64,000 nt of DNA from Candidatus Babelota bacterium (GCA_013287855.1 JABDCY010000001.1:2277-66276), one strand, 5' to 3'. Shown: positions 45,348 through 64,000, counted from the stretch's first letter. The notes: generated by a model from the sequence alone, not told the origin. A program made the numbers and translations.

Positions 45348-46305
45348 CTTGTTCACTTGATGGCAGCAAGTTATAGATACCCGTGCTGGCAGTACCTAAA
45401 ATTCCTGTCCATTTTACATACCAAGGAATTCTAGCGACTATTGTGCGAAGTGGATTTTCTTCATCGAGCCTAGATGATTGCGTATCCACAAGCAACAAAA
45501 CTCCTGAAACGGTAAGCCAACTAAGACCTCGTGGAACTGAAGAGGAATTTAATTTTTTTGGTTGCCGATGGGGTGAGAGTTTTTTTGTCACGCTTTCTAC
45601 AGGTTCCCTTATAGCCGAACTCATTTGTGCACGTTGGTCTTTCTTTTTTTGTGTTAAATCTTTTAAGGCTATAACTGAAGTTTGGTAGATCAAAGATTTC
45701 TGCCCGACTTTATCACCCCAAGCTTCTCTATCTTTTAGAATAATTGGATTTAGAAATTGTTCGACGCTGGAACACACGGTTTTAACATCTTCATCGGTAT
45801 AATCTTGAGGCACAACTACTTTGAATGGCGTTTTGCTGCTAGCCTCCACCATAGAAGTGTTTATTAATGGAATGAATTCTGATTTTTGATAAGGATCTTG
45901 ATCATCATCCCCTTCATATTCAGTCCACAACGTTATAAAATTTTCAGAATCATTAATTTCTTTTTTTTCGAACAATGTTTCAATATGGGTATTTTCTTGT
46001 GCAAGTAAGTTTTGAACTGCAGTACCAACGTCTTTTAATTTAGAAGAAAGATGCTGCACCCTGCCATTTTGTTGTGCATCAAAATCTTTGAGCAGCGGTT
46101 TTGATGTAATAAAAATTCTATCGGTCGGCTCTAACCCCACATTGATTAATTTTGAAAGTCTTTGCTGCTTTGTCTCACCGTAGATCTCTAGTCTTTTAAA
46201 ATTCCCCGATTGTCTGTGCATACTTTGAGACATCATTCCAATGCTCAGACCACAGGTCAAAATAAGCACAGCGAAAATTTTAGACATCTGCATGTTGCAC
46301 CTCAT
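45331..46305 (-). CDS. hypothetical protein with N-terminal leader and C-terminal hydrophobic segments
   Basis: ATGA overlap with the upstream gene. Leader SKIFAVLILTCGLSIG. C-terminal LSWLTVSGVLLLV and WTGILGTASTGIY. Confidence 0.5.
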   Translation of the reverse strand: MRCNMQMSKIFAVLILTCGLSIGMMSQSMHRQSGNFKRLEIYGETKQQRLSKLINVGLEPTDRIFITSKPLLKDFDAQQNGRVQHLSSKLKDVGTAVQNLLAQENTHIETLFEKKEINDSENFITLWTEYEGDDDQDPYQKSEFIPLINTSMVEASSKTPFKVVVPQDYTDEDVKTVCSSVEQFLNPIILKDREAWGDKVGQKSLIYQTSVIALKDLTQKKKDQRAQMSSAIREPVESVTKKLSPHRQPKKLNSSSVPRGLSWLTVSGVLLLVDTQSSRLDEENPLRTIVARIPWYVKWTGILGTASTGIYNLLPSSEQDDEKN

Positions 46306-47747
46306 CGCATTTTGAATTTTTTAAGCCCAATCAAACTCATGCATGCCAACAAAACTCCTCCCTGAAATCTGCTAATTTGCGAGGTTCCATATGCTCTGCT
46401 TTTGTAATGCACGGGCATATCAACAATTTTGAGGTTAAGTTTAGCAGCACCAAAAAGTAAATCAAAGTCGCCGTACGGATCAAAATCACCAAAATAGTGA
46501 CGATTGGCAACAATCGCCTCGTAATCCTTTTTAAACAGCACCTTGGTGCCGCAAAGCGTATCTTTGATTTTTTGATTCAACAACCAGGTGAAAATGAGTG
46601 AAAATCCATAATTGGCAAGCAGATTCAAAAACCGCATCGCTTGATTTTCCATGCCATACACAAGGCGTGAGCCGTTGATGAAATCTCCTTTGCCACGCAT
46701 GAGAGCATCAAAAAATTTCGGCATTTCTTCTGGCGGTGTCGTAATGTCACCATCCAAAATCATAAGAACATCGCCGCGTGCATGTGCAAAACCTTTGCGG
46801 ACCGCGTCGCCCTTTCCTTTGCCATCTTGCACAATATACTTGATATCTTTTTCTGGATATGTGGCAATTACCCGCTTGATTTCATCCAAAGTACCATCTT
46901 TGGAATGGCCTTCTGCAAAAATAAATTCGGTGTGTTTACCCATGATAGGTGTTTGCGTGATTGCAGCTTCCACATTGCCCCGCTCATTGCGGCAGGTAAT
47001 TATTACCGACACCACATAATCACGCGGATTACGTGCAACAGGAAGTGGACGTGCAACCACCCACTCATGCAAACAGAGACGATTGATGCCGGGAATAAGT
47101 GCCAGAATACTATTGAAGAACCAAGAAATTAACGGAATATTAATAGGTATCAACGTATGCCATCCCGTAATCACGGGTTCAAAATCAGCAAGATGCAAAA
47201 AATTAATCAGATCTTTGTGGGCAATCCAATTTTTGAAGGTGGTGGGTCGCCGCAAGCCTAATTTTTGAGTAAGTCGTAGCAGCGGCTCCCAAAAATAGGA
47301 ATACGAATCGATCACGAGCCGAGTGCCGGGGTGACAAAATGGTTGAAGGGACACAAAAAGATCTTGGATGTCATACGTTTCTAGAGTGATAGAAGAAAGA
47401 ATGATGTAATCAAATTGTTGTGCAGAAATTTGTGCAAGATCAGTAACAAAAGTCAAATGTGGATACGTCGCCTGAGCTTCGTGCGTGTACTGCTCATCAG
47501 CATCCACACCCACACCCCATGAAGGACGCACCGCATCGAGCACATAGCCATTTTTACCATTGATTTGCAGTACTCGCCTGCCTTGTGGAATCACAAAGGT
47601 ATAAAATTTGAGCAGCTGCTTATGGTAATAGCTATTTTTTTTGAGCCAATATGAAAATGGCTGATGCCAGGTACTGCGATTATTATTTTTTACAGATTGG
47701 TCACCCAGAAGCGCTGTTTTTTGGTGATTTGACTGTTTTTGCATCAT
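46302..47747 (-). CDS. bifunctional methyltransferase-like / GT2 glycosyltransferase fusion
   Basis: N-terminal half has a class I MT-like layout (RRVLQINGKNGYVLDAV...FDYIILSS). C-terminal half has VSVIITCRNERGNVE and ILDGDITTPPEE (GT2). ATG at 47747; the ORF is open to TTG 47795. Confidence 0.7.
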   Translation of the reverse strand: MMQKQSNHQKTALLGDQSVKNNNRSTWHQPFSYWLKKNSYYHKQLLKFYTFVIPQGRRVLQINGKNGYVLDAVRPSWGVGVDADEQYTHEAQATYPHLTFVTDLAQISAQQFDYIILSSITLETYDIQDLFVSLQPFCHPGTRLVIDSYSYFWEPLLRLTQKLGLRRPTTFKNWIAHKDLINFLHLADFEPVITGWHTLIPINIPLISWFFNSILALIPGINRLCLHEWVVARPLPVARNPRDYVVSVIITCRNERGNVEAAITQTPIMGKHTEFIFAEGHSKDGTLDEIKRVIATYPEKDIKYIVQDGKGKGDAVRKGFAHARGDVLMILDGDITTPPEEMPKFFDALMRGKGDFINGSRLVYGMENQAMRFLNLLANYGFSLIFTWLLNQKIKDTLCGTKVLFKKDYEAIVANRHYFGDFDPYGDFDLLFGAAKLNLKIVDMPVHYKSRAYGTSQISRFQGGVLLACMSLIGLKKFKMR

Positions 47748-47848
47748 TATTACCTTGGTTCGGTTGATTTTTTGATCTTTCAGTATTGAAATCAATATTA
47801 AAATAAATTTCTTCCAAACATTCTCAAAGGAGCTTGATAAACCACTCG

Positions 47849-49361: not shown

Positions 49362-49660
49362 AGAAGTTACTGTTGTTTACTCTATTTTTTATGCACAGCA
49401 ATTTTTGCATGCAAACTAAGAAACAAATAAAACTTGTTTTTACGCAAGAAGATTTTGCGGCATTATCGCACATGCCACAAGCAGAACTTCTATCAGCGTG
49501 TAAAGATCTCATGCAAAATTATAATATCTTATACGGTGAAGCAACTACATTGGTCGATTTAGCTGAACGCTCTAAGAAACTCCTGCAACAAACGATCGCA
49601 GAAAATGCTCGGCTGAAAACGTTGGTAAGCCTGAGCGCTGACAAAGAAAATCAACATTAA
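49358..49660 (+). CDS. small secreted hypothetical protein
   Basis: ATGA-type overlap with the upstream gene. Leader MKKLLLFTLFFMHSNFC. Confidence 0.5.
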   Translation: MKKLLLFTLFFMHSNFCMQTKKQIKLVFTQEDFAALSHMPQAELLSACKDLMQNYNILYGEATTLVDLAERSKKLLQQTIAENARLKTLVSLSADKENQH

Positions 49661-50520
49661 CCAACCGCAGGTTTGGCATTCGTCATCTTTTCACCCAAAA
49701 ATCGCACATAATATTCGGTTGGGTTCAAGTTTGAGGCAACCCTGGTTTGCGCACATACTTTATCAAGCGCGAGAATCTTTTTAGGGAACGGTGACTTTTG
49801 CCAGTTTTCAAAATGACAGTACGCGGGCGACAACGCTTTGGTTGGTGGATTGTTGATAAAATAGCGGTTCAAATGACTTTCATCATTAAACACCGCAACA
49901 AATCCCCGGGCCACATCGGTATCCACATTGTTCATAGTCGTGCGCACAAGACGCAAAAATTCTTCACGCGTGCCGCCGTAAAATCCACCCGCAAAATAAA
50001 ATCTACCCTCATTGCGATGAATGCATGCAGTGGAAATTGGATTGGTTTCATAGATACCACGCTCAAACAAAAATTGCGGATGGCGCACGCCGACCCGATC
50101 GCTCAAAATTTCATCACCAATCGGCGCATTAAAGAGCATGTCAGCATCAATGGCAAACAGATAATCCATGTTCGCTAATTTTTCTTGATTATTATAATAC
50201 GCATGGAAGCGCATCATGGTCGCCCATGGCCAGCCCATTTGCACCTGTGGGACTTTTACTACTCGCGGATGTTCTGGAGGAGTTCCGTCAGTGAAAATAA
50301 AATAAGTCACATTGTGATGGGTACAAAAATAACGATCGGCACTTTCGATGAGCGGAGCAACAAAGTTGATATATTTGCCGGTTGCGGTAATCAAAAGACC
50401 AATATTTTGTTTTTTTGTGGTGTCTGCACAAAATTTCTCTGGATCTTCTGGCTTGTGTCGAGCGGCAAAGAGAAAAACGCCTACAAGTAATGTGATTGTT
50501 GTCATAATAATTTTGTTCAT
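49657..50520 (-). CDS. GT6-family glycosyltransferase (histo-blood-group ABO / alpha-1,3-Gal(NAc)-transferase-like), type II anchor, DXD retained
   Basis: Collinear with the human GTA catalytic domain as recalled: [34 protein letters not shown] / [38 protein letters not shown] / [32 protein letters not shown] / [45 protein letters not shown] / [25 protein letters not shown]. N-terminal anchor [14 protein letters not shown]. Confidence 0.85.
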   Translation of the reverse strand: [287 protein letters not shown]

Positions 50521-51178: not shown

Positions 51179-51823
51179 TTATTTACGTACCATGATAATT
51201 TGGTAGCCAGTTACATACACACGCCATCCTTTTTGTCGTAAATAATAAATCACTAATTCTCCTTTACCACCGTGCACCAAACCACAATCATCAATCATTA
51301 CCACAGCATTGGGTGATAACTTATCATAGGCAGCTTCAATTTCGTATAAATGATGTAATTGCGATGGCAAGGGATTATTTCCATCAAAATCAAAACTATC
51401 TAAGTACAGAAAATCGATAGGTTTATCAAAATTTTTTAAAAAATGTACTGAATCATTTACTATAAGATGCACATTGTTTTCACTTCCTGGGAATAACATG
51501 GTGCGTGCATTTTCTACGGCTACAGGATTAATGTCAACAGAGTATAAGTCAGCTTGATGTAAAGCACTCCAGTAGCCAAAAAGAACGGTAAAACCACCAT
51601 TACTGTCAAACACCCCTTCTTTATCTCTGGTCGTTCCTGTTTCTACAATTGTTTTTACATGACGCTCGGTCATCAAGTGTGCCGCAACCTCAAAGGTTAC
51701 GCGCCGGTCATTATGAACTTTGCTTCGTATAAAGGCGAGGGCAGAATCTAGTGAGCTGTACGCATCTTGAACGCATACTAATACATAAAAACTCGCTGCC
51801 ATTATCTTAAATTTAACATTCAT
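51179..51823 (-). CDS. class I SAM-dependent methyltransferase-like protein with N-terminal leader
   Basis: ATG at 51823 after GAGGAA. Leader MNVKFKIMAASFYVLVCVQDAYS. IVETGTTRD, LYSVDINP and DFLYLDSFD give a Methyltransf_24-like layout. Confidence 0.55.
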   Translation of the reverse strand: MNVKFKIMAASFYVLVCVQDAYSSLDSALAFIRSKVHNDRRVTFEVAAHLMTERHVKTIVETGTTRDKEGVFDSNGGFTVLFGYWSALHQADLYSVDINPVAVENARTMLFPGSENNVHLIVNDSVHFLKNFDKPIDFLYLDSFDFDGNNPLPSQLHHLYEIEAAYDKLSPNAVVMIDDCGLVHGGKGELVIYYLRQKGWRVYVTGYQIIMVRK

Positions 51824-52009
51824 CACTATATTCCTCATTAGAAAAACTATCAAAAACACAGTTAAAACCATTAAGTTTGCCAGAAACACTATTCATACAT
51901 TAATTGGATGTCAATTGGTTTTTTTGTATCACACATGCACAATTTTTACTTGGCGCTCTAATCTGCTATCCTAAAAAAGGTCGTTGATTAGCAATTTTCA
52001 GGATCATTA

Positions 52010-52675
52010 ATGCAAATTCTTAAAGCTCACGAAATTTTATTGTTCATCAAACCATACTTGCCCGATTATCCCGTTATCGTAGAAGCGGGAGCCTTTAATG
52101 GCCGTGACACGCGGCGCCTAGCCACCTTTTGGCCACAAGGCACCGTGCATGCATTTGAACCGGTGCCTGAAATTTTTGCACAACTGAAATCGAATTCTGC
52201 ACATTTATCTAACGTGCATTGTTATCAACTAGCACTCAGCAATTCCACTGGCACTGCCACATTTAATGTCTCTGAAAATCCCCACAAGCCTGGTGCGCCC
52301 TATCCTGCAGGCTCTCTGCTCACGCCAAAAGAACGGTTACAATTTTCATCGGCGCAGTACCCAAAAAAAATTCAAGTTCCAACAACAACACTTGATGACT
52401 GGGCACAAAAATACAAGATTAGTCATGTGGATTTTTTATGGTTAGATTTGCAAGGCCATGAACTTGCCGTTATGCAAGCAGCACCACAAATCTTACAACA
52501 GGTGAAAATTATTTTTACCGAAGTAGAATTTGTGCAAGCCTATGAAGGTTGTCCGCTCTATCATGAAGTACAACAGTGGCTTGAAGCACACGGTTTTGTG
52601 GCCATCGCAAAGGATTTTGAAACGACCAGCGGATGGTTTTTTGGCAATATGGTGTTCAAGCAAACAAAGAATTGA
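52010..52675 (+). CDS. FkbM-family methyltransferase
   Basis: VIVEAGAFNGRDT...VHAFEPVPEIFAQL...ALSNSTGTATF...VDFLWLDLQGHELAVM matches the FkbM family pattern. No leader. Confidence 0.75.
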   Translation: MQILKAHEILLFIKPYLPDYPVIVEAGAFNGRDTRRLATFWPQGTVHAFEPVPEIFAQLKSNSAHLSNVHCYQLALSNSTGTATFNVSENPHKPGAPYPAGSLLTPKERLQFSSAQYPKKIQVPTTTLDDWAQKYKISHVDFLWLDLQGHELAVMQAAPQILQQVKIIFTEVEFVQAYEGCPLYHEVQQWLEAHGFVAIAKDFETTSGWFFGNMVFKQTKN

Positions 52676-52738
52676 TTTTATAGTGATATATTGTAATTTA
52701 GAATGCAGAAATTTTAATTAGAAAAAAGGAGCATGTTT

Positions 52739-53740
52739 ATGAAAAGATCAAGACTCATCTTGTCGTATATTGTTATTTTCTTATTCGCCCACGTTAGCCA
52801 TTGCATGTCTCATGACCCAAGTTTACGCATTGACCGCGTTGTCCTTTGGGGCTGCAAACATTTTTCTGATACTTTTGCCTACGTCAATTTTGCCTTCGCT
52901 AAAGCGTTCAAGCATCTTGGCTATGAAGTCTTGTGGCTCGACAATAATGACCGTATAGATCATATTAATCTCGCACATTCTCTCATTTTAGGAGTCGGCC
53001 ATGTCGATCAAAATATACCTTTGCGTGACGATTGTTATTATGTGCTGCACAATTGTGATCTGACCAAATACGACTCTTTGTATAAGGCAAACAAATGTCT
53101 TGTCTTACAGGTTTACGTTAACGATATTCTCACGCGTGATGTGGAATATATTGCCGACTGCGTGTACTATCAACCTTCGTTAAAAACACTGTACCAGCCT
53201 TGGGCAACTGATCTACTGCCCCATGAAATCGATAGTATCAAACTACAGCTAACAACTAAAAAAAACAAAGAATCTGTCGTCTATTGGGTTGGCACCATAT
53301 GGGATGGCTTATTTGGTAATCGAGATAAACTCAGTCGCTTTGAAAGCGCCTGCAACAAAGCAGGAGTACGCTTTGAACATCTCGCTAATATACGTTTGGA
53401 GCAAAATATCAATTTCATGCAAAAATCTTTTCTAGCACCTGCAATTCAAGGACAATGGCAATGTGAGAAAGGCTATATCCCATGCCGTATTTTTAAAAAC
53501 ATCAGTTATGGTGCTCTTGGCATAACTAATTCAGAAACTGTCTATAATTTATTTAAAAGAAAAATAGTTTATAATCCCGACACGTATCAACTTTTTTTTG
53601 ATGCTTTTGAACGTGCAAAAACAATCACCTTGGAAGAACAATATGAACTTATGGATTTTGTAAAAGAACATCATACCTATTTAAATCGTATCGAACGAAT
53701 TTTTCAGTTTCTTGCACGTTTGCAACAAACAACACATTAA
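52739..53740 (+). CDS. hypothetical protein with leader, possible glycosyltransferase
   Basis: ATG at 52739, 7 nt after AGGAG. Leader MKRSRLILSYIVIFLFAHVSHC. The C-terminal half (VYWVGTIWDG...RIFKNISYGALGITNS) loosely resembles the GT-B C-domain. Assignment is weak. Confidence 0.3.
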   Translation: MKRSRLILSYIVIFLFAHVSHCMSHDPSLRIDRVVLWGCKHFSDTFAYVNFAFAKAFKHLGYEVLWLDNNDRIDHINLAHSLILGVGHVDQNIPLRDDCYYVLHNCDLTKYDSLYKANKCLVLQVYVNDILTRDVEYIADCVYYQPSLKTLYQPWATDLLPHEIDSIKLQLTTKKNKESVVYWVGTIWDGLFGNRDKLSRFESACNKAGVRFEHLANIRLEQNINFMQKSFLAPAIQGQWQCEKGYIPCRIFKNISYGALGITNSETVYNLFKRKIVYNPDTYQLFFDAFERAKTITLEEQYELMDFVKEHHTYLNRIERIFQFLARLQQTTH

Positions 53741-53753: not shown

Positions 53754-54578
53754 ATGAATAAAAATATTTTTTTTATCCTAGCAGTCATCAGCTATCCATA
53801 TTTAGCAGCTACCGGTATTACGCTTAAAACTGGTAATCGAAACAGCTATATAGGTATGTTCAAACCCACAGATAAAAATTTACAAGGCTTAAAATTTGGC
53901 AATTGGGGAAGCCGTCCCTATGAATATGCCTGGGTCAGTTCACTTGCTTCGGTCGAAGGCAAACGAGTAATCGATTTGGGGGTAGGTATACCTTCACACT
54001 ATAACTGGTATCAATATGTCGTCGAACAGTTAAAGCCTGCATTTTATGCGGGAGTAGACCTTGATGAACGCATCAAAGATCAGCTTCTTTCGGGATCAAA
54101 TTTTGAACTTAAATATATGAATATGGCAAACCTAGAATATCCCGACAAATCATTTGATATCGCGTATTGCATCAGTACCTTTGAGCATATTCCGTACGCT
54201 GACTTCATGGGATCCATCAAGGAAGCACATCGTGTTTTGACTGATGATGGACTGCTCATCATAACCCTTGATGAAGAATGGGATAAAAATGAACCATCAA
54301 ACTACTACAATGGATGGAATACACTTGAACTAAGTCTTATGCAGCGTGGTTTTACTCGCAAGAATCGTTCATTTGGACTTCCAGAATTTATGATGCTGAT
54401 TAAAGATTACTTTGTATTATATCAAGACGACGCAATGATAGATTCAACACTAGGTATAATCTCGTCTAAGCGTGATGGATTCATTTATTATCAACGGGAA
54501 AATCGTGATAATTCAATTTTAAACAGCGGGTCAGTTATTAATAGTTGTGTAAGTTATGCTGTGCTCAAAAAAAAATAA
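53754..54578 (+). CDS. class I SAM-dependent methyltransferase with N-terminal leader
   Basis: GAGGAG SD. Leader MNKNIFFILAVISYPYLAA. VIDLGVG, FDIAYCISTFEHI and DDGLLIITLD are Methyltransf_11-like. Confidence 0.6.
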   Translation: MNKNIFFILAVISYPYLAATGITLKTGNRNSYIGMFKPTDKNLQGLKFGNWGSRPYEYAWVSSLASVEGKRVIDLGVGIPSHYNWYQYVVEQLKPAFYAGVDLDERIKDQLLSGSNFELKYMNMANLEYPDKSFDIAYCISTFEHIPYADFMGSIKEAHRVLTDDGLLIITLDEEWDKNEPSNYYNGWNTLELSLMQRGFTRKNRSFGLPEFMMLIKDYFVLYQDDAMIDSTLGIISSKRDGFIYYQRENRDNSILNSGSVINSCVSYAVLKKK

Positions 54579-54589: not shown

Positions 54590-55291
54590 TTAATTTACAA
54601 GTACTTTAGCCAACTGCTGTTTAATGCAATAATTGTATGCTAAATTAATATGGACATTGCCATCGCTTAAAGTTTTATCAAGATCTCCCGCTTGTGTAGC
54701 ATAAAATTGATAAAAATCTAAAAATTTTATCCCATGCTGTGAGCAGTTGGTTTTAAGCAAACTGTTAAGCTGCTGTGTAATAAGTATGCGATCACTAATT
54801 GAACCATAGCTGGGATATTCTTTAGAAAAATCGCCGTTCATTGGTGGTACTACATTAGCAATAACGCACGTTATATAATTATAATTCTGCTTATTATTCA
54901 GTACAGTTTTAAGGTAATTATCAGCTAATGGCTGCAGAATGGAAGCTAATGGTACTTTTTGTAAATCGCGCTGTTTACCGATATGACATCTGACATCAAT
55001 CTCACCGAAAACAAAAATAACCGTATCGCCGTCTTGTATTCCCAAATCTCTTAAGTTTAATGCATTAAACCCATCGCGGCCTACGCGATGCATTGTAGTT
55101 GGTCCTAGCCAATGGATATCAAATGCCATTGAATTGGCGTTTTTATAAGCATAATAATGAGAAAAACGCCAATCCAATATTCCTTCATAAGCAAAGCAAT
55201 AAAAGGCGTGACTATCGCCAACAACGTGTATTCGTGATGCCGACAAAAAAGAGCTCATCGAAACTACGATGAGCAATAATTTTTTTCCCAT
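54590..55291 (-). CDS. SGNH/GDSL-type hydrolase (possible glycan O-acetyl esterase/transferase) with leader
   Basis: Leader MGKKLLLIVVSMSSFLSA, immediately followed by block I IHVVGDSHAF. Block II-like FVFGEIDV. Block V-like DGNVHIN. Confidence 0.55.
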   Translation of the reverse strand: MGKKLLLIVVSMSSFLSASRIHVVGDSHAFYCFAYEGILDWRFSHYYAYKNANSMAFDIHWLGPTTMHRVGRDGFNALNLRDLGIQDGDTVIFVFGEIDVRCHIGKQRDLQKVPLASILQPLADNYLKTVLNNKQNYNYITCVIANVVPPMNGDFSKEYPSYGSISDRILITQQLNSLLKTNCSQHGIKFLDFYQFYATQAGDLDKTLSDGNVHINLAYNYCIKQQLAKVLVN

Positions 55292-55421: not shown

Positions 55422-56480
55422 ATGATGAAGCCTAATAAAATATCCATTTTTATTTTTATATTTTTGACTTTGAATGGCTATTCTGCAGATGCACATCAAC
55501 CAGAATTAACGTTATGGCAAGTAAAAGTTGGTTCAGCATTGCATAAAGACTTCTTGCAAACTCTTATAAATATTTTTGGTGTTGATGTTTTTGTTGAAAG
55601 TGGGACCTATATAGGGGATAGCACCGCCATTGCAGCCACATGCTTTAAAGAGGTCCATACCATAGAATTGGGACAGCAGTTATATCAAGCCGCAAAGGAG
55701 CGTTTCAGAAATCAAGCCAATGTTCATCTCTATCTAGGTGATTCCTCAAAAGTACTGGATAAAATTCTAAAGACCCTTAAAGGAAATATTCTTTTTTGGC
55801 TGGATGGACATTATAGCGGTGGTAATACCGCTCTTGGTGATTCCAATACACCTATACTTCAGGAGCTTGCGGCAATCAAAAATTGCGGTATTACCGATTC
55901 GATTATTCTCATCGATGATATGCGACTATTCAGAAACTTCAAAAACAATTCCGATTCTAACATAAATGGTTATCCAACAATAGAAGACCTGCAACACGCT
56001 CTCTTTACTATCAATCCTCAATACCAAATTCTCATCATGGGCGATATCGCGCTCGCGTATCCACATAAATTTTTCATCGCTCTTTCACCGGTTTTGCAGG
56101 CATGCACTCAAAGCCGTTGCTCAGATAAATTTACTTTTGATCAAATTCTTGTTGCTGATAAAACTATCGGCTCAGCTAGCGGCAGCGAACGTACTGCCAT
56201 AGTAGATTTAGTACAAAGATTTCCTAATGCTAATGGATATTACCATCTTTTATATGGTCTTGTTTGTGAGCAAGAAAAATCTTATCAAGAGGCATATAAT
56301 CATTACATAACTGCACTAAACAATGAGTTCAATAACTGGCGGGCATGGTTATATGCTGCACGCGTTGCTCATAAAGTGAATAATAAACAACTCATGGAAT
56401 TGACATTGCAAGAAGCAATAAAACAACAAACAAATGTTACTAAAGAAAAATTATGGTTGGCTATAACGGAAGAAAAATAA
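55422..56480 (+). CDS. putative methyltransferase-fold protein with leader and C-terminal TPR-like helical region
   Basis: AGGAG SD. Leader KISIFIFIFLTLNGYSADA. FVESGTYIGDST (motif I-like), WLDGHYSGG, IILIDDMRLF. C-terminal YHLLYGLVCEQEKSYQEAYNHYITAL. Confidence 0.4.
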   Translation: MMKPNKISIFIFIFLTLNGYSADAHQPELTLWQVKVGSALHKDFLQTLINIFGVDVFVESGTYIGDSTAIAATCFKEVHTIELGQQLYQAAKERFRNQANVHLYLGDSSKVLDKILKTLKGNILFWLDGHYSGGNTALGDSNTPILQELAAIKNCGITDSIILIDDMRLFRNFKNNSDSNINGYPTIEDLQHALFTINPQYQILIMGDIALAYPHKFFIALSPVLQACTQSRCSDKFTFDQILVADKTIGSASGSERTAIVDLVQRFPNANGYYHLLYGLVCEQEKSYQEAYNHYITALNNEFNNWRAWLYAARVAHKVNNKQLMELTLQEAIKQQTNVTKEKLWLAITEEK

Positions 56481-56500
56481 GCCTTAAAAAAAGGATTGTA

Positions 56501-57385
56501 ATGAACGTACTCCATAAATTTTATACGATGATGCTGTGCTCAATTGTTTGTTTTGCATTAATTGACGCTAAGGAAAAAGTTCTCATTTTCACACAAGTAT
56601 ATAATCGCCCTGATTTTATTGAACTTCATGCAAAAACATTCAAAGCCTTTATGCAAGATGAGTATGAATATGTTGTTTTTAACGATGCAAATGATCCAAA
56701 TATGCAATATCAAATTGAACGAACATGTTCAAAATTAGGCATTCGATGCTTTAAAATTCCCTATAATCCAGATACTCGTCCCGGATGGCGCCATATTGCC
56801 GGAATTAAATATTCATTTGAAACCATCGGCTTTGACTTTGATGGTATCGTAATGCTCGTTGATTCCGACATGTTCTTGGTAAAACCATTTAGCGCAAATA
56901 AGTATATGGAAGGATATGATCTAATAGGCGGGGCAGATTCACGAGAGAATGACAGAATAAAAGTATCATATTTGATGCCAACTTTGGTGTTCATTAACAT
57001 GAAAACAGCGCCAAATAAACGAACTCTCAATTTTTATGGTGGCCATGTTGAAGGCCTGCCTTGCGATGTTGGTGGCCACACCTATTATTATTTAAAAAAT
57101 AATCCAACCTTGCGTTATCGTTTATTTACTTATCTATCCCTTCAAGGCCTCGTGGATAAAAATACTTCCTGGCTACAAGCGCTAGGTTTTGATGATCATT
57201 CTATTAATTTTATTCGCACAACTGATTATCATTATGGTTTTCAATTCCACGCCGAATCCTACTTCATGCATTACTACGCAGGCGGATCAAATTGGCCAGG
57301 ATACTCGCAGGATTACTTACATATAAAAAATGTAATGTTACATAATTATATCGATACGCAAATGCGCAACTATCACGTGTCATAA
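56501..57385 (+). CDS. putative GT-A-type glycosyltransferase with leader (DXD)
   Basis: ATG at 56501 after AAGGA. Leader MNVLHKFYTMMLCSIVCFALIDA. LIFTQVYNRPDFIELH, VVFNDAND and MLVDSDMFLV (DXD). Confidence 0.45.
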   Translation: MNVLHKFYTMMLCSIVCFALIDAKEKVLIFTQVYNRPDFIELHAKTFKAFMQDEYEYVVFNDANDPNMQYQIERTCSKLGIRCFKIPYNPDTRPGWRHIAGIKYSFETIGFDFDGIVMLVDSDMFLVKPFSANKYMEGYDLIGGADSRENDRIKVSYLMPTLVFINMKTAPNKRTLNFYGGHVEGLPCDVGGHTYYYLKNNPTLRYRLFTYLSLQGLVDKNTSWLQALGFDDHSINFIRTTDYHYGFQFHAESYFMHYYAGGSNWPGYSQDYLHIKNVMLHNYIDTQMRNYHVS

Positions 57386-57564: not shown

Positions 57565-58266
57565 ATGAGAATTTTAACCTTTGTCGTTTTGTTAACCTGG
57601 TTCATAATGTCAAACGCCCAACTTGTTCAGCATAACATGGCCCAGGTTTTACATGTTCCAGAAGTATTGGCGGCCCACATGATTGAAAGAATCGGGTACA
57701 TTGATCGGCTCAACACCAGTCATGCGCCATATTACCCTATTTTGTCGAATGCGTTTTTGAAAGAGCGTGGCTATAAAATTGGTTGTGAAATTGGTGTTTT
57801 TACGGCCGGGCATGCCGCATTTATCTTAGCAAACACCGCGGTAGAAAAATTATATTGTGTTGATTCATACATTGCACCTATGCATATTGTTACTACCATC
57901 ACTGATGGATTTGACAGGCGTTACTGGCAAGCATGTTGGGACACAATGTACCATTACGCGGTAGACAAACTTTCTGCATTTGGCAAGCGGGCATACTTCA
58001 TTCGAATGTCAGCAGCGCAAGCAGCTAGCATGATTGCCGATCATAGCCTTGACTTTATATTTATCGACGGCGATCATTCCTATGCTGGAGCCTTATCAGA
58101 TTGCGGCAACTATTACGACAAAGTTCGCTCTGGCGGCATGATCGCCGGCGACGATTATAACATCGATGATGTTGGTCGCGCTGTACGCGATTTCTTTGGA
58201 CAAAAGAAGCTCGTCATTAATGTCTATCCAGGACAGCAAAGATTTTGGTGGGTAGAAAAACCATAA
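57565..58266 (+). CDS. class I SAM-dependent methyltransferase (Methyltransf_24/CmcI-like) with leader
   Basis: Leader MRILTFVVLLTWFIMSNA. GCEIGVFTAGHA, LDFIFIDGDHSYAG and GGMIAGDDY. Confidence 0.6.
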   Translation: MRILTFVVLLTWFIMSNAQLVQHNMAQVLHVPEVLAAHMIERIGYIDRLNTSHAPYYPILSNAFLKERGYKIGCEIGVFTAGHAAFILANTAVEKLYCVDSYIAPMHIVTTITDGFDRRYWQACWDTMYHYAVDKLSAFGKRAYFIRMSAAQAASMIADHSLDFIFIDGDHSYAGALSDCGNYYDKVRSGGMIAGDDYNIDDVGRAVRDFFGQKKLVINVYPGQQRFWWVEKP

Positions 58267-58290: not shown

Positions 58291-58986
58291 TCAACATCTG
58301 ACATAGGCTTCATTGGGAGCACCCGTTGAAACACTGCTGCCAAACACGTTAACTTCTATATCGAGATTTTCAACATACAGAACTTTAAAATTTTTATTTT
58401 TATTTTTTTTCCTAAGAACATACTTGGCAACTTCACGTTCAAGATTAATCATTTGGTCTTCCATAACCCAATAATTAATATTTTGCAGCATTTCTTGAAG
58501 ATACTTGCATTTCATGGCAAATCCTAAAGTATAAGCCTGTGCTGTTGGCCAGTGAATTTTTATTATTGCATCATAATCGGAACTGTTTTCCACAAGTTTT
58601 AAAAATCTATCAGAGATAAAGCGATAACGACCTGTCATTTTTAATATCATATCCTCAGGATTAAAATTAAAGTAACCGATTGCTTCTAGCATCGTTTGCG
58701 CTTCGTTGATGCCTTTATTTCTTAAATTGGGATTATTAGTTGTAGCATAAAATACATGGTTACTGTAATCGTCAAGGAACGTGGGTCCGTGCTTTTTTAG
58801 CGCTTCCACAATATAAAAATCATGATAGCCAAAATTGTCCAAACCAGTGAAATTGGTTATGTACTGCTGTCTTCTAAATTCAAAATATGCGTCCGTCAAT
58901 GCAGCTGTTAAGAGAATGTGCATTTTACCAAAACAGGGAAAAACAACTAAGATCAGTACTATTGATAATGCGCTTTGTTTTTGCAT
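58291..58986 (-). CDS. leader-bearing protein of unknown family (tandem paralog 1)
   Basis: ATG at 58986 after GAGGAA. Collinear with the 58998-59693 product, e.g. NFGY.DFYIVEAL.KHGPT.L..Y.NHVFYAT.NNP.L.N.GINEA.T.LEA and DMILK.TGRY.F. Confidence 0.55.
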   Translation of the reverse strand: MQKQSALSIVLILVVFPCFGKMHILLTAALTDAYFEFRRQQYITNFTGLDNFGYHDFYIVEALKKHGPTFLDDYSNHVFYATTNNPNLRNKGINEAQTMLEAIGYFNFNPEDMILKMTGRYRFISDRFLKLVENSSDYDAIIKIHWPTAQAYTLGFAMKCKYLQEMLQNINYWVMEDQMINLEREVAKYVLRKKNKNKNFKVLYVENLDIEVNVFGSSVSTGAPNEAYVRC

Positions 58987-58997
58987 GAACGTTTTCC

Positions 58998-59693
58998 TCA
59001 ATAATGTATGACCTCATTCGATCCTGGCGCCGTTGTACTACCATAGGTGCTACCGGTAATATCTAATTGAGGAACATACAGAACTTTAAACTTTCCTTGC
59101 CTTTCTTTTTGCAGCACATAATCACCGACTGCTTTCTCTAAGATCACCCAATGGTGTTCCATGGCGTGATAATCCAAATGCTCATACATGTCTTGTAAGT
59201 GTTTGCATTTCATGGCAAAACATACTACATAAACTTGTCCTGATGGCGCATGAATTCTCAGAATAGCGTCATAGTCAGAATTATTTTCTATCATTTTTAA
59301 AAAATAGTCAGAACCAAAGTGATATCTACCAGTACACTTTAGTATCATGTCATCTGGAGCAAAATTAAAGTGGTACGTTGCTTCAAGAATAGTTCTCGCT
59401 TCATTTATACCATTATTTTTGAGATGTGGATTGTTAACCGTTGCATAAAAAACGTGATTACAATAATTTTCTAGATAGGTTGGCCCATGTTTTTGCAATG
59501 CTTCGACAATGTAAAAATCTTTGTAACCAAAATTTGTTAAGACATTAAATGTTTCAAGGTATTGTTTTTGTCTAAATTCTGCGTACACATTATTAGTCAG
59601 TGCAGCGCTTAATAAAATTTTTAATTGTCCGCTACATGACATCACTATCGCACTGATGAGAATAAGTAACGATACTTTATTATACAATCTCAT
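58998..59693 (-). CDS. leader-bearing protein of unknown family (tandem paralog 2)
   Basis: ATG at 59693; the ORF is open to TTG 59717. Leader VSLLILISAIVMSC. See paralog 1. Confidence 0.55.
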   Translation of the reverse strand: MRLYNKVSLLILISAIVMSCSGQLKILLSAALTNNVYAEFRQKQYLETFNVLTNFGYKDFYIVEALQKHGPTYLENYCNHVFYATVNNPHLKNNGINEARTILEATYHFNFAPDDMILKCTGRYHFGSDYFLKMIENNSDYDAILRIHAPSGQVYVVCFAMKCKHLQDMYEHLDYHAMEHHWVILEKAVGDYVLQKERQGKFKVLYVPQLDITGSTYGSTTAPGSNEVIHY

Positions 59694-60936
59694 AAAATTT
59701 TTCCTGTTTTTCGACAATTTGTTTAAGAATTTTCTTCATAGGCTCTAATGGCACGGTCACATGAGAATCAGCAAACGTAAAGCGCGTAGGTACAACCCAA
59801 TAATTTGCACCGGCAATACTCGACAACCACCAACACCATTCACAACCACTGTCATTAATACCCTGTGGATTCGCAAGATAAGCTAACTCTGGATGAATCT
59901 CAATAACTGATGCACCTGGATTTGCATATAGCACATTAGTCAATCCGCTTGCCATAACACCAATGATTAATCGGGCATTGTTAAAAATTTTAATCTGTTC
60001 GCTTACGCTCATGCTCGCATCAAATATCAAAATTTCGTATCCCTTATGTGCAAAACTCTCGTTTACCGTCCTCACAAGTTCAGCTAAATTTAAAATGCGA
60101 CGATCCGCTTCTCTTCTTTGAATAATCACAACCAAATTATTTTTGTATTCACGCGAAGAGGGTTTTTGATAGGCAGCTTCTATAAGCTCAGATCTCAACT
60201 CTGATAAAAGTTTTTTTGGGATGGGTTCCATCAAAAATGGGGTTGCAAAATAAAGAGTTTCTGCGTGATATAAAGCATTGCTATTGGCAACAATAACTTG
60301 ATCTGAAGGAATTCCTAATAGGTGTAGGTATTCATGTACATAGCCCGCCACACTATTATGTTGATTATGTATAACTAATTTAATAGTAGGATCTTGCAAA
60401 ATAAATTTTCTTAATAGTAGTATACTGGGCAGCCTATCGATGACCCAGTGATAGTATAAAGTTGGTCCTTGCACCGTAGCAAGTTTATCATGATATAGCA
60501 CTGCCATATGCATTACGTCTTGCTGAAGATTCCAGAATATAGGAATACCAGGAGCAACTTTGATATCAAAAAGAAACTCTTGTTGATAATCAAAAACCGT
60601 TCCTAACTGGCGTGGTGATGTAAAGGCTGAGTGCAATTTAGCGACATATGTATTTTTCAAACTTTTTATGCCATATGATTGTGGATTATTCCAATCAAAT
60701 GTTGAATTTAATGTCTTTAAATGCCCACTATCCAACGCATTAGGTTGTGCGCCATATGCCACCGTATCTTCATACTCTGGAAATTTTATAAGATCGATTC
60801 CTACCGCATCACGAATGTTATAAATTTTTTTTAATGCATTAGGGTTAGGAACAGAATATAAATCGGTACCATACAACAGAACTATGAAAATAAAAAAATT
60901 ATATACTGTATTATTATTGTGTTTACTGTGAAACAT
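59680..60936 (-). CDS. GT61-family (DUF563) glycosyltransferase with N-terminal anchor
   Basis: YYHWVIDRLPSILLL and IIGVMASGLTNVLYANPGASVIEIHP match the two GT61/DUF563 signature regions. Anchor VYNFFIFIVLLYGTDLY. Confidence 0.7.
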   Translation of the reverse strand: MFHSKHNNNTVYNFFIFIVLLYGTDLYSVPNPNALKKIYNIRDAVGIDLIKFPEYEDTVAYGAQPNALDSGHLKTLNSTFDWNNPQSYGIKSLKNTYVAKLHSAFTSPRQLGTVFDYQQEFLFDIKVAPGIPIFWNLQQDVMHMAVLYHDKLATVQGPTLYYHWVIDRLPSILLLRKFILQDPTIKLVIHNQHNSVAGYVHEYLHLLGIPSDQVIVANSNALYHAETLYFATPFLMEPIPKKLLSELRSELIEAAYQKPSSREYKNNLVVIIQRREADRRILNLAELVRTVNESFAHKGYEILIFDASMSVSEQIKIFNNARLIIGVMASGLTNVLYANPGASVIEIHPELAYLANPQGINDSGCEWCWWLSSIAGANYWVVPTRFTFADSHVTVPLEPMKKILKQIVEKQEKFYEIV

Positions 60937-61834
60937 GTCCCATGCCCTTTAATAATTTTGCCAAAGCGTCTTTAATATGAGATATATTTGGATACAATTT
61001 CAAAAGTTTCGCAGCACTCAACTCCGCATTTGCGCGTCGAGCTTTCAACATCGCATCTTGTTCTTGAATGGTAAAATTTTCCCACGTATGATTTGGGTCA
61101 ACATATTTTTTATACATGTCCAAAACTTCATTGTGCGACATAGCGCCAGGGTTCACAAAATTATAATTCCCTTTTAATTCTCGCAATGTCATGTCCACCG
61201 CAATAGGTAAAAGATCATCTAATATGCATAAAGAGTTAGGCACATTAATGAGCTTTTTATATTTAATAATTTTACCCACAAAACCTACGTCTGGATCGGT
61301 AGAAATAGGCATTTTAACGCGTAAATTAAGCACGTTTGGATATTCGAGCATTAATTTTTCCAACAAAATTTTAGTACGTGAATAAAATGAGCCGTTAAAA
61401 TTAGGCTCATCTTCTTCGGTAAATCCAATGCCGCTGTACATTGGGTGCTGCGCATCATACTCATAAATGCAGCCGGTACTAATATTAGTTATGTGTATAT
61501 TATGCAGGAAAGCAATATCGATAAGATTCAAGGTGCCAATCACGTTAACACGCAAAGTTTCTTGTTTGTGCGTCTCGCACCAATCAACATTCGGTTTTCC
61601 TGTAATGCCCGCGGTATTAATAATGTAATCTGGTTTAACTTGAGTAATTTCTGCACTAATAGCTTCCCGGTTTTCTAAACGTGACTGTGCACAAACAGGA
61701 TTGTGGCCAAGCTCTTGTAAAATTCTTACAATTTTTTGTCCAATCCAACCACTTTTACCACCAAAGACTAAAACCGTTTTGGGCAGTGTTAATGTTGAAA
61801 TACAACACAGCAAAAAAACAAGTAATTTTTTCAC
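60923..61834 (-). CDS. NRS/ER-type NDP-4-keto-6-deoxyhexose 3,5-epimerase/4-reductase (plant UER1 / giant-virus type) with N-terminal leader
   Basis: Collinear with Arabidopsis NRS/ER as recalled: GKSGWIG / GKTGWIG; TGKPNVDWCETHKQETLRVNVIGTLNL / TGRPNVDWCESHKVETIRTNVAGTLTL; STGCIYEYDAQHPMYSGIGFTEEDEPNFNGSFYSRTK / ATGCIFEYDSGHPLGSGIGFKEEDTPNFTGSFYSKTK; NLRVKMPIS / TLRVRMPIS; IPNSLCILDDLLPIAVDM...YNFVNPGAMSHNEVLDMYKKYVDPNHTWENFT. GTG start 7 nt after GGAG. Leader MKKLLVFLLCCISTLTL. Confidence 0.85.
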   Translation of the reverse strand: MKKLLVFLLCCISTLTLPKTVLVFGGKSGWIGQKIVRILQELGHNPVCAQSRLENREAISAEITQVKPDYIINTAGITGKPNVDWCETHKQETLRVNVIGTLNLIDIAFLHNIHITNISTGCIYEYDAQHPMYSGIGFTEEDEPNFNGSFYSRTKILLEKLMLEYPNVLNLRVKMPISTDPDVGFVGKIIKYKKLINVPNSLCILDDLLPIAVDMTLRELKGNYNFVNPGAMSHNEVLDMYKKYVDPNHTWENFTIQEQDAMLKARRANAELSAAKLLKLYPNISHIKDALAKLLKGMGHVSQ

Positions 61835-61848
61835 GCTACAACTCCAAC

Positions 61849-62952
61849 TTATTTTTTATAATCTTCCAAAACTCCCCATTGTAGAAATAATTTTGCAACT
61901 TCATCTTTTGATACCACGGCCATATCTGAACTGTATTCAGGCAGAATGTGTACATCTACCGGCTTGCCTTCACGTATATATATCGGCGGAGTTTGATGTT
62001 TATAATAGAGATTTATCACCGATGGCCTTATAATAAATCGTCCGGCAAATTCGTAGGTTCGAGCCATTTCTGCTTGACTAATTAATGCTTCATGTAATTT
62101 TTCACCTGGTCGCAAACCGATGAGCTTAATCGTATTATTTCCGTGGAATGCTTCTTTTAATATTTCAATGAGATCCGTAACTTTATGAGCGGGCATCCTG
62201 GTGACAAATATTTCTCCACCAATGCCATAGCGCAATGCATCAAATATTAATGCAACTGCTTCATCTTTGGTTATCATAAAGCGCGTCATGCGCTCATCAG
62301 TTAAAGGGATATCATCACCATTTTTTATTTTCTCGGTAAATATTGGTATTGCCGAACCCGTGCTTTCAAGAACATTACCATAACGAGCAACCACAAATTT
62401 TGTTGTTATTTTTGATGGATCATAATTAGTAAATATTTTTTCGCTCGCAAATTTACACGCACCATAAATATTAATAGGAGAACAAGCTTTATCGGTTGAA
62501 ATAAAGACCAACCTGTTGACACTATTTTCAACACAGGCATTAAAAACATTTATCGAACCAAGAATATTAGTTTTGATCGATTGTTCGACATTACTTTCTA
62601 ATATATCGATGCGCTTCAAGGCTGCTACATGAAATACTACATCCGCATGCTTTGTGGCATATAACACGTCTTGGTAATCTCTAATATCACCAATAATAAA
62701 TTTGATTTTGGGATTGTTACCAAATAACTTAGACATGTTGAAATGTTTAACTTCATCACGACTAAAAATAGTTATGCTTGCCGGGTTATATTGCAATAAC
62801 TTCTCGGTGATAGCTCGGCCCAAAAAACCAGTACCACCTAAGACAACAATGTTTTTATTTTCGAAAAGTGCATGATTGTCTGGCGATGCGAAGACACAAG
62901 TGACTGCTAACGAAATTATACAAAATAAAAATTTGGAAAAATTTTTTTTCAT
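61849..62952 (-). CDS. CapD/PseB-type UDP-HexNAc (or UDP-hexose) 4,6-dehydratase (extended SDR) with N-terminal leader
   Basis: VLGGTGFLG, IFSRDEVKH, FIGDIRD, HVAALKRI, IKTNILGSINVFNAC, ISTDKACSPINIYGACK, RYGNV, LTDERMTRF and GLRPGEKLHE are collinear with PseB/FlaA1 as recalled. Leader MKKNFSKFLFCIISLAVTCVFA. Confidence 0.8.
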   Translation of the reverse strand: MKKNFSKFLFCIISLAVTCVFASPDNHALFENKNIVVLGGTGFLGRAITEKLLQYNPASITIFSRDEVKHFNMSKLFGNNPKIKFIIGDIRDYQDVLYATKHADVVFHVAALKRIDILESNVEQSIKTNILGSINVFNACVENSVNRLVFISTDKACSPINIYGACKFASEKIFTNYDPSKITTKFVVARYGNVLESTGSAIPIFTEKIKNGDDIPLTDERMTRFMITKDEAVALIFDALRYGIGGEIFVTRMPAHKVTDLIEILKEAFHGNNTIKLIGLRPGEKLHEALISQAEMARTYEFAGRFIIRPSVINLYYKHQTPPIYIREGKPVDVHILPEYSSDMAVVSKDEVAKLFLQWGVLEDYKK

Positions 62953-63185: not shown

Positions 63186-64000
63186 ATGTGGCACAAGACG
63201 TATGCGGTTTTTGTCAGCACGGGTATTTTTTTATCCTGTTTTGGTTTTGAAAAATTAACTATCTTGACACAATCACCAGTTGCTTCAGGGGGTTGGGTTG
63301 GTCATCCGGCTGTTAATAGCAGTATTTTGCGCGGACTTGCAGCTTTAGGGGTTAATCATAATTTTAATCCTCGCACTCTTGCTGAAATTGGGGATGCCGT
63401 CTTTGTACCAGCCGGCCAAGTGGCATTACAAACGGCAATTTCACTAAAACAACAAGGGAAAATACGAGTATTGTTAACTGGGCCAAATGTGGTAGCAAGA
63501 ATGACGGAACTTAATAGTATTGTAGCCCATCCTGCCGTTGATCGCTTTGTTGCTAATTGCGAATGGACCAAAATTTTTTGCGAAGGTAGCGAACCTAAAT
63601 TACATAATAGAGTTGTCATATGGCCTGCCGGTGTTGATTGCAAATATTGGAAACCAACCGGCAATACTAGCATGAGTAAACAAGTACTTGTGTATAAAAA
63701 AAATGTTGATGAATACTTTTGTCAGGAAGTGGAACACACTTTGAGAAGATATGGTTGGCAGCCGATGCGCATTACATATGGCGAATATGGCACAGATGGT
63801 TTTAAAAATATGCTTAATCAAGCACGGTTTGCGGTATTTTTAAGTAGATCAGAATCACAAGGCATTGCTCTAGCAGAATGTTGGTCATGTAACGTGCCAA
63901 CGCTTGTTTGGGATATTCAACAGCCACTTTCATATTTAGAATATTCCATATGGCCTGTTTCCGCAGCCCCTTACCTGACAAACGCCACCGGCCAATTCTG
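63186..64000 (+). CDS. putative GT-B glycosyltransferase, N-terminal 271 codons (runs off right edge)
   Basis: ATG at 63186 after AAGGGGGG. I translated it by hand and found it stop-free to 64000; it is absent from the ORF track because no stop lies in the window. Leader MWHKTYAVFVSTGIFLSCFG. FLSRSESQGIALAECWSCNVPTLVWD resembles the GT1/GT4 E-x7-E region. Confidence 0.6.
   Translation, partial: MWHKTYAVFVSTGIFLSCFGFEKLTILTQSPVASGGWVGHPAVNSSILRGLAALGVNHNFNPRTLAEIGDAVFVPAGQVALQTAISLKQQGKIRVLLTGPNVVARMTELNSIVAHPAVDRFVANCEWTKIFCEGSEPKLHNRVVIWPAGVDCKYWKPTGNTSMSKQVLVYKKNVDEYFCQEVEHTLRRYGWQPMRITYGEYGTDGFKNMLNQARFAVFLSRSESQGIALAECWSCNVPTLVWDIQQPLSYLEYSIWPVSAAPYLTNATGQF

Follow-up and report, generated by a model that had tools for sequence, protein, structure and literature searches.

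A PseB-like dehydratase paired with an NRS/ER-type epimerase/reductase in a Dependentiae bacterium: a possible leader-tagged route to 6-deoxy-L-HexNAc sugars

What sugar does a bacterium make when a dehydratase of the PseB/FlaA1 kind stands directly before an epimerase/reductase of the NRS/ER type, an enzyme described in the literature as belonging to eukaryotes and giant viruses (PMC9614988), and on which side of the membrane is that sugar made? The question is raised by a stretch of 64,000 nucleotides (nt) from Candidatus Babelota bacterium (GCA_013287855.1, JABDCY010000001.1:2277-66276), a protist-parasitic member of the phylum Dependentiae; at its full length this stretch is called the window below. 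Here two minus-strand genes, predicted to encode the two enzymes, open a tight run of five genes that extends from 62952 to 58291. We propose that the pair makes a uridine diphosphate (UDP)-linked 6-deoxy-L-N-acetylhexosamine (6-deoxy-L-HexNAc), most likely UDP-N-acetyl-L-rhamnosamine (UDP-L-RhaNAc), in an exported pathway that would draw on substrates of the host; this is the reading we prefer, and our confidence in it is evenly divided. The run is composed as follows.

61849..62952, minus strand: PseB/FlaA1-like UDP-N-acetylglucosamine (UDP-GlcNAc) 4,6-dehydratase by family, ATG start, 367 amino acids (aa)
61835..61848, minus strand: intergenic spacer gttGGAGttgtagc, 14 nt, with a Shine-Dalgarno-like GGAG at 61845-61842, read from the sequence
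60923..61834, minus strand: NRS/ER (UGER)-type epimerase/4-reductase, GTG start, 303 aa
59680..60936, minus strand: GT61-family glycosyltransferase, PF04577 at 81 bits, with an N-terminal hydrophobic segment
58998..59717, minus strand: unkA, leader-bearing candidate transferase, no Pfam match, predicted GT-A / nucleotide-diphospho-sugar-transferase fold
58291..59001, minus strand: unkB, paralogue of unkA (53% identity), last gene of the run

The open reading frames (ORFs) of the first two genes occupy 60923-62952 exactly as an earlier note on this DNA had placed them. That note also held the pair to be translationally coupled, with the GGAG of the second gene inside the 3' end of the first, and in this detail it was off. 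The dehydratase gene ends with TAA at 61851-61849, the 14-nt spacer follows, and the NRS/ER gene begins with its GTG at 61834; the GGAG that serves it (61845-61842) lies within the spacer, 7 nt ahead of the GTG, and a GGGGAG that does fall inside the 3' end of the dehydratase gene (61877-61872) is 37 nt from the NRS/ER start. The true overlap is one gene downstream, where the GT61 gene starts (ATG at 60936) before the NRS/ER gene has ended, the two sharing 14 nt, and the run continues with overlaps of 38 nt (GT61/unkA) and 4 nt (unkA/unkB). Rfam and tRNA scans of the window gave no match, and a scan of 58-63.4 kb for promoter-like sites (30 against 23 expected) and terminator-like sites (1 against 4 expected) was uninformative.

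Judged by its family and structure scores, the 303-aa protein is a full-length member of the NRS/ER (UGER) family and not RmlD. It matches the Arabidopsis NRS/ER (PDB 4QQR) with 318 bits (E 4e-94, residues 22-294 against 16-289), at about 51% identity in local alignment, and the UDP-L-rhamnose synthase L780 of mimivirus (7JID) with 208 bits, at about 39% identity over its full length. RmlD structures reach 36 bits at most (best 9GPI) and the rmlD model TIGR01214 yields 57 bits where 224 is the cut-off, scores on which an identity as RmlD was ruled out; the whole-length likeness to plant NRS/ER (UER1) that the earlier note had claimed is upheld. The Rossmann motif reads GGKSGWIG, the reductase triad is T120, Y151 and K155, and the epimerase pair is C122 and K188. 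Four of these residues (C122/Y151/K155/K188) correspond to C115/Y144/K148/K183 of the Arabidopsis enzyme, and C122/K188 to Cys108/Lys175 of L780, which mutagenesis has identified as catalytic, forming the acid/base pair of the epimerase (PMC9614988). Across the 33 Dependentiae and Chlamydiae copies compared, T120, Y151 and K155 do not vary. What is out of the ordinary is the partner, since the usual RmlB-like UDP-glucose 4,6-dehydratase (UGD) is replaced here by a Polysacc_synt_2/PseB-like enzyme.

This partner, the 367-aa protein, is by family a PseB/FlaA1-type UDP-GlcNAc 4,6-dehydratase, and so the earlier alignment of it with dehydratases of the PseB/FlaA1/CapD type stands. It matches Polysacc_synt_2 (PF02719) with 284 bits, and its best model match is PseB (TIGR03589) with 307.4 bits, under the equivalog cut-off of 407.75; among known structures, FlaA1/PseB (2GN4) scores 256 bits and Megavirus Mg534 (4TQG) 162 bits. 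Identity as a 4,6-dehydratase/5-epimerase of the FnlA/CapE/WbjB kind was considered and rejected, the protein being more distant from these than from PseB/FlaA1 and scoring 238 bits with TIGR04130 (FnlA), where the cut-off is 730. Its Rossmann motif is G39-x-T-G-x-x-G and its catalytic residues are T153-D154-K155 ... Y163-x3-K167, that is, the [ST]DK...Yx3K signature with Tyr and not the Met of PglF/WbpM. TDK...Yx3K is listed as the signature of PseB/FlaA1 in Table 1 of PMC8987622, and the characterised enzymes of Polysacc_synt_2 fold that carry it act on UDP-GlcNAc; according to PMC8987622, PseB itself has yet to be assigned the residues that determine whether C5 is inverted.

Genes of other sugar pathways were looked for in the same DNA. 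As the earlier note had said, the window offers no RmlA, RmlC or RmlD, none being found by Pfam or NCBIfam among the 49 window ORFs scanned, and the same ORFs include no sugar aminotransferase, acetyltransferase, 2-epimerase or PseC/H/G/I/F. A tblastn search of the window found no gene of RmlB/UGD type. Contig L092 extends 3.9 kb further than the window, and there too RmlA/C/D, sugar aminotransferase, 2-epimerase and pseudaminic-acid genes were not found (compared contigs and loci are given L numbers throughout).

The chemistry that we propose has two steps within the pair. The PseB/FlaA1-type enzyme would oxidise and dehydrate UDP-GlcNAc and invert C5, giving UDP-2-acetamido-2,6-dideoxy-L-arabino-hex-4-ulose, a step suggested by its family and by the presence of TDK...Yx3K. 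C3 would next be epimerised by the NRS/ER-type enzyme, together with C5 should the dehydratase not have inverted it, and NADPH-dependent reduction of C4 would yield a UDP-6-deoxy-L-HexNAc. UDP-L-RhaNAc would be the simplest outcome, both because L-manno is the configuration that NRS/ER and L780 produce on reduction and because the same two-step logic is established for Mg534 and Mg535 of Megavirus (PMC9614988). Transfer of the sugar could fall to the GT61 protein and the two proteins of predicted GT-A fold, and methyltransferases might decorate the glycan. The earlier note had left the choice between UDP-L-rhamnose and a UDP-6-deoxy-L-HexNAc open; the second is now favoured, and the first is less likely, since relatives keep a separate, UGD-coupled paralogue.

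The evidence for that paralogue comes from a comparison of loci by tblastn, with the two window proteins and a chlamydial RmlB/UGD-type dehydratase (PF16363, 241 bits; PDB 6BI4, 248 bits) as queries. NRS/ER copies that are 61-72% identical to that of the window adjoin a PseB-like gene, usually less than 150 nt away, in 16 distinct loci, and copies that are 53-64% identical adjoin a PF16363 dehydratase of RmlB/UGD type in more than 20 loci. The UGD-type partner is found in six of the seven Chlamydiae loci, the seventh (L026) having no dehydratase nearby. In two genomes (L011 and L013) both pairs are present, and each paralogue has its own dehydratase for a neighbour. Partner type agrees with that of the nearest sequence neighbour in 32 of 33 cases, and in a neighbour-joining tree 15 of the 16 PseB-coupled copies fall together. 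Identity to the Arabidopsis enzyme is lower for the PseB-coupled copies (51.1%) than for the UGD-coupled ones (56.5%), and the two groups differ at two positions: at residue 174, 14 of 15 PseB-coupled copies have K, and 18/18 UGD-coupled copies, Arabidopsis and L780 have R, while residue 273 is S in the PseB-coupled copies and D in the others. Because two genomes carry both pairs, each with its own dehydratase, the comparison points to the NRS/ER of the window being a diverged paralogue of the UGD-coupled enzyme that acts on a 4-keto-6-deoxy-HexNAc, and the changes from R to K at 174 and from D to S at 273 furnish a two-residue hypothesis for the shift in specificity. For the UGD-coupled pairs the likely product is UDP- or dTDP-L-rhamnose, because their dehydratase is of RmlB/UGD type. 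Two loci, L006 and L031, depart from the one-pair pattern; L006 (6001-7817) has tandem NRS/ER copies (70% and 63% identity) behind a single PseB-like gene.

Both proteins of the window pair begin with M-K-K and an uncharged stretch of about 14-15 residues, and the Rossmann strand follows a few residues on. In the dehydratase this leader covers about residues 1-22, MKKNFSKFLFCIISLAVTCVFA, followed by SPDN, and in the NRS/ER-type protein about residues 1-19, MKKLLVFLLCCISTLTLPK. An alignment of 21 Dependentiae orthologues shows that leader sequence varies freely and its character is kept. A leader is present on all 35 of the Dependentiae and Chlamydiae NRS/ER homologues tabulated, each with K/R ahead of an uncharged core, whose median length is 15 (range 9-21), and by inspection on every PseB-like partner and 18/18 UGD-like partners whose N-terminus lies on the contig. 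There is none on the NRS/ER homologues of the Candidate Phyla Radiation (CPR) bacteria or DPANN archaea, and in the plant and viral proteins the alignment starts at the Rossmann motif. Within the window, LeuRS, S1, SHMT, NusB, EF-P and AsnB are without leaders; an M15 D-Ala-D-Ala dipeptidase, expected to be periplasmic, has one, as does nearly every gene from 48.6 kb to the window end, including GT6, GT61, methyltransferases and a GDSL protein. The earlier note had found the hydrophobic leaders odd for short-chain dehydrogenases/reductases. They are indeed present, and they are not peculiar to this pair, being pathway-wide in two phyla.

Other sources for these leaders were considered and set aside. 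A start-codon artefact was rejected because the GGAG lies 7 nt before the GTG and every orthologue has a leader; between leader and Rossmann motif both genes are free of in-frame ATG, GTG and TTG codons, and the sole alternative start of the NRS/ER gene, a TTG at codon 8, would still leave half of the leader. A lipoprotein signal was discounted, inspection showing a Cys near the end of some leaders and no consistent lipobox, and twin-arginine export likewise, the leaders having no RR motif. Leaders were also observed on a UDP-glucose-6-dehydrogenase-like protein (L002, 10565-11734, minus strand) and a GDP-mannose-4,6-dehydratase-like protein (L004, 15828-16922, plus strand) of related Dependentiae, and leader-tagging therefore extends to other NAD(P)-dependent enzymes of sugar-nucleotide metabolism. 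About 35 of the 59 window ORFs of at least 150 aa start with a signal-peptide-like leader, many of them small and without known domains.

As read from sequence, the leader pattern is that of a Sec signal peptide, N-in/C-out, and because all these proteins carry such leaders the enzymes and transferases of the pathway most likely leave the cytoplasm, for the periplasm, the cell surface or a compartment of the host. Exported enzymes would have to use UDP-GlcNAc, NADPH and S-adenosylmethionine (SAM), which could be derived from the host. The frequency of leaders in the window matches the very large secretomes reported for Dependentiae: signal peptides occur on 44% of the coding sequences of Chromulinavorax destructans (PMC6561590), and ankyrin proteins of Babela that bear signal peptides are presumed to enter the cytoplasm of the amoeba (PMC4378268). 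Chlamydia trachomatis is reported to secrete glycogen enzymes into the inclusion lumen, where host UDP-glucose is used (PMC4829429).

Several observations weigh against our proposal and bear on different parts of it. With a score under the PseB cut-off (307 against 407.75), the dehydratase has a stereochemistry, and even a substrate, that can be assigned only tentatively, and TDK...Yx3K is given in the same Table 1 for the 5,6-dehydratase Pen as well (PMC8987622). The clade of PseB-coupled copies has weak neighbour-joining bootstrap values (61/200 with all 15 sequences, 107/200 with the 12 of its core), and in one locus (L031, 275-2369) an NRS/ER of the UGD-coupled type is followed by a divergent PseB-like gene (47% identity). 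With regard to export, a small-x-small pattern, which is a crude test for a signal-peptidase site, is found in 21 of the 35 NRS/ER leaders, and a leader may be less telling in a phylum where about 60% of the larger window ORFs bear one. NRS/ER also consumes NADPH stoichiometrically, and a dehydratase exported by Sec has to bind its NAD(P)+ on the far side of the membrane. A periplasm is not known to provide either cofactor.

These last points would be met if the same chemistry took place inside the cell, with the leaders acting as N-terminal tethers of a cytoplasmic assembly to the inner membrane or being a feature of the phylum that has no bearing on location. The cytoplasm would solve the supply of NADPH, NAD+ and UDP-GlcNAc; a Wzx-type flippase and leaderless GT2/GT4 genes nearby fit cytoplasmic glycan assembly; and leaders on some 60% of the larger ORFs agree with a general feature. 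We nevertheless consider this unlikely, given that in 35/35 leaders K/R stands before a short uncharged core, which is the pattern of an N-in/C-out signal peptide and not of a reverse anchor, and that the housekeeping cytoplasmic proteins are leaderless while the periplasm-type M15 peptidase is not.

The identity of the product is a separate matter. The pair might make UDP-L-rhamnose from UDP-glucose, in the manner of plant RHM/NRS-ER and mimivirus R141/L780, with the PseB-like enzyme standing in for UGD, and the second enzyme is indeed a close full-length homologue of enzymes making UDP-L-rhamnose, with all catalytic residues kept, in a window that has no UGD-type gene. The characterised Polysacc_synt_2 enzymes with TDK...Yx3K, however, use UDP-GlcNAc (PMC8987622), relatives maintain a dedicated UGD + NRS/ER pair, the presence of both pairs in two genomes argues against redundancy, and the PseB-coupled copies have moved away from the plant enzyme (51% against 56.5% identity) with two lineage-specific substitutions, all of which makes UDP-L-rhamnose rather improbable. 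More improbable still is that the PseB-like enzyme begins a pathway to pseudaminic acid or another amino sugar, NRS/ER being a plain 4-ketoreductase or an unrelated neighbour. PseB is the best family match and NCBI names the orthologue in the cultured strain Noda2021 'UDP-N-acetylglucosamine 4,6-dehydratase (inverting)', but no aminotransferase, acetyltransferase, PseG/PseI/PseF or 2-epimerase was seen in the scanned window ORFs or upstream on L092, adjacency to NRS/ER is kept in 16 loci, and the Cys/Lys pair of the epimerase is conserved.

If the reading that we prefer is right, and UDP-GlcNAc is converted to a UDP-6-deoxy-L-HexNAc in an exported pathway, a bacterial step of PseB type feeding a step of NRS/ER type would be a third solution to 6-deoxy-L-HexNAc synthesis. 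The other two are bacterial three-enzyme routes and Mg534/Mg535 of Megavirus; the Wbv-type pathway of Vibrio cholerae O37 is a route of the three-enzyme kind. A wider and more tentative idea, which we think possible and on balance doubtful, is that Dependentiae and environmental Chlamydiae possess a Golgi-like system for sugar nucleotides that works outside the cytoplasm, whether in the periplasm, at the cell surface or in the host compartment, and directly on UDP-sugars, NADPH and SAM from the host. Its members would be the exported dehydratases (UGD, PseB-like and GMD-like), the UGDH-like and NRS/ER-type enzymes, methyltransferases, GT61 and GT6; its outcome would be a glycan coat for bacteria without most lipopolysaccharide (LPS) genes, most of which are missing in Babeliales; and in the lineage with the PseB + NRS/ER pair it would have been rewired towards sugars of the L-RhaNAc type. 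That leaders on NAD(P)-dependent enzymes of sugar-nucleotide metabolism have been kept across two intracellular phyla raises the question of whether surface glycans are built outside the cytoplasm from host sugars, and cultured strains with the pair exist, Noda2021 being one.

How far does the NRS/ER type extend among prokaryotes? The earlier note had taken the fused enzyme to be the solution of plants, fungi and giant viruses, which cannot be maintained: in a scan of one genome per species, 293 of about 185,000 prokaryotic species genomes encode relatives, in Dependentiae, Chlamydiae, CPR bacteria and DPANN archaea. Identity to the window enzyme is 55-72% in Dependentiae, 57-64% in Chlamydiae, including Simkania and Rhabdochlamydiaceae, and about 40% in CPR (Peribacteria, Gracilibacteria, Uhrbacteria) and DPANN. 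The type is common within Dependentiae, more than 120 clusters (90% identity) in a protein database being 61-79% identical to the window enzyme, and a profile search returned 430 clusters (50% identity) with E <1e-30, plant RHM fusions among them; the cluster names of ten 50%-identity representatives gave one plant RHM label. The nearest named relatives of both window proteins belong to Candidatus Babeliales/Dependentiae (TM6) and include Noda2021. Our literature search found no published description of the NRS/ER type in these bacteria, and current databases name the proteins RmlD or generic epimerases. If an L-rhamnose enzyme labelled 'eukaryote and giant-virus' is widespread in host-dependent prokaryotes, this bears on the origin of the eukaryotic and giant-virus pathways. 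The neighbour-joining tree leaves the bacterial leader-bearing clade either sister to eukaryotes or nested within them. The viral homologues adjoin UGD-type genes only, and a giant-virus origin of the pair was rejected, the IMG/VR homologues being 27-47% identical and their partners of UGD type, never PseB-like.

Some of the taxonomic labels met in this comparison call for comment. The NRS/ER homologue of L040 (PBNL01000023.1, 'Methanobacteriota archaeon') is 53% identical to that of the window, has a plant-like N-terminus with no start codon before the Rossmann motif, and groups with plant sequences in the tree; a piece of eukaryotic DNA may have been mis-binned here into an archaeal metagenome-assembled genome (MAG). 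Four loci labelled 'uncultured Pseudomonadota' (L007, L010, L012 and L014) and one labelled 'uncultured Verrucomicrobiae' (L032) hold a Dependentiae-type gene set and proteins that are 61-72% identical to ours, and because of this their phylum labels are probably wrong.

The pair sits in a glycan-building block of about 15 kb in which nearly all genes bear leaders. Besides the run of five genes, its members are these, followed by a divergent gene at the end of the window.

49657-50520, minus strand: GT6, by Pfam, leader-bearing
51179-51889, minus strand: Methyltransf_24, by Pfam, in the leader-bearing set
52010-52675, plus strand: FkbM methyltransferase, by Pfam, no leader
52733-53740, plus strand: ORF of unassigned family, in the leader-bearing set
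53754-54578, plus strand: Methyltransf_11, by Pfam, in the leader-bearing set
54590-55291, minus strand: GDSL/SGNH, by Pfam, leader-bearing
55422-56480, plus strand: methyltransferase-like, in the leader-bearing set
56453-57385, plus strand: unk310 family, leader-bearing, no Pfam match
57565-58266, plus strand: TylF-like Methyltransf_24, by Pfam, in the leader-bearing set
63197..64000, plus strand: divergent leader-bearing gene (MWHKTYAVFVSTGIFLSCFGF...), running off the window

A full copy of the last gene on contig L092 encodes 322 aa with no Pfam match and is followed by a second GT6 and an FkbM methyltransferase. The unkA family comprises about 40 clusters among 5.8 billion proteins, the only named one being from Babeliaceae; its members are leader-bearing and about 230 aa long, and it is found directly downstream of NRS/ER in L001, L002, L010 and L031 (copies at L001 8934-9620, L002 8926-9633 and L010 3328-5419). 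The AlphaFold model of unkA (pLDDT 92) gives Foldseek matches to BoGT6a, the glycosyltransferase domain of LH3, KfiA and IspD/KdsB at TM scores of about 0.45-0.54. Because of this GT-A-like model and the frequent place directly downstream of NRS/ER, unkA and unkB may represent a new family of glycosyltransferases.

Two further families recur in these clusters. The unk310 proteins, of about 300 aa, bear leaders and a YNRPDFIEL-like N-terminal motif that recalls GT2, and are found beside NRS/ER genes in other loci (four tandem copies at L029 7750-12655; L004 8924-9862; L020 4153-5959), with an expansion in Vermiphilus. GT6/GT61 genes occur in the window (49657-50520 and 59680-60936), in L092 (78-797) and in L004 (9957-10631); both window copies have an N-terminal hydrophobic segment, and the L004 copy as called is without one. 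GT6 and GT61 are best known from type II membrane proteins of the eukaryotic Golgi and endoplasmic reticulum. Elsewhere in the window, at 29858-47795, is a leaderless polysaccharide block with three GT2 and two GT4 genes, a Wzx-type flippase, an AsnB-like amidotransferase and a GT2 fusion, and because this adjoins the leader-bearing block the genome may run two topologically distinct glycan systems. The window also encodes bacterial leucyl-tRNA synthetase (LeuRS), ribosomal protein S1, serine hydroxymethyltransferase (SHMT) and a DEAD-box helicase. In Noda2021 a gene some 6 kb away from the sugar pair has a Pfam match to bacteriorhodopsin (PF01036; L001 14554-15324), which one would not expect in an obligately intracellular organism, and in one MAG a protein with collagen triple-helix repeats is encoded directly downstream of the NRS/ER homologue (L034 7013-8038); by analogy with the collagen-like fibril proteins of giant viruses, it could be a target of glycosylation.

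The enzymes of the window have analogues in several organisms, none of which agrees with them throughout. Plant NRS/ER and L780 possess the same Rossmann motif, T/Y/K reductase triad and Cys/Lys epimerase pair, but the window enzyme is coupled to a PseB-like partner, bears a leader and has K174 and S273 where they have R and D. PseB/FlaA1 of Helicobacter and Campylobacter are the best match to the window dehydratase in both sequence and structure and share its TDK...Yx3K; this dehydratase, however, scores below the family cut-off, bears a leader, has no downstream Pse genes and is partnered by an epimerase/reductase and not an aminotransferase. In Megavirus chilensis, Mg534 and Mg535 make UDP-L-RhaNAc, and 4-O-methyl-RhaNAc is found on the fibrils (PMC9614988); the window pair likewise lies in a glycan cluster with transferases, and its abundant methyltransferases can be set beside the methylated RhaNAc of the virus. 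The resemblance has limits, for Mg534 scores 162 bits with the window dehydratase against 256 for FlaA1, and Mg535, of 270 aa, is bacterial RmlD-like by description (PMC9614988), whereas the second enzyme of the window is of NRS/ER type, like L780. Signal peptides on the viral enzymes are not described in PMC9614988, while the window enzymes carry leaders.

Closest in organisation are the UGD + NRS/ER pairs of Chlamydiae and other Dependentiae, which have the same NRS/ER lineage, the leaders and the tight pairing, and differ in a dehydratase of RmlB/UGD type (PF16363); our literature search found no paper on such leader-bearing pairs. For an intracellular bacterium that conducts nucleotide-sugar-dependent glycan synthesis outside its own cytoplasm with host substrates, the glycogen enzymes of C. 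trachomatis provide a precedent. That system is reportedly one of type III secretion and alpha-glucan synthesis. The signals of the window proteins are instead of Sec type, and the enzymes that bear them include NAD(P)-dependent modifiers of sugar nucleotides.

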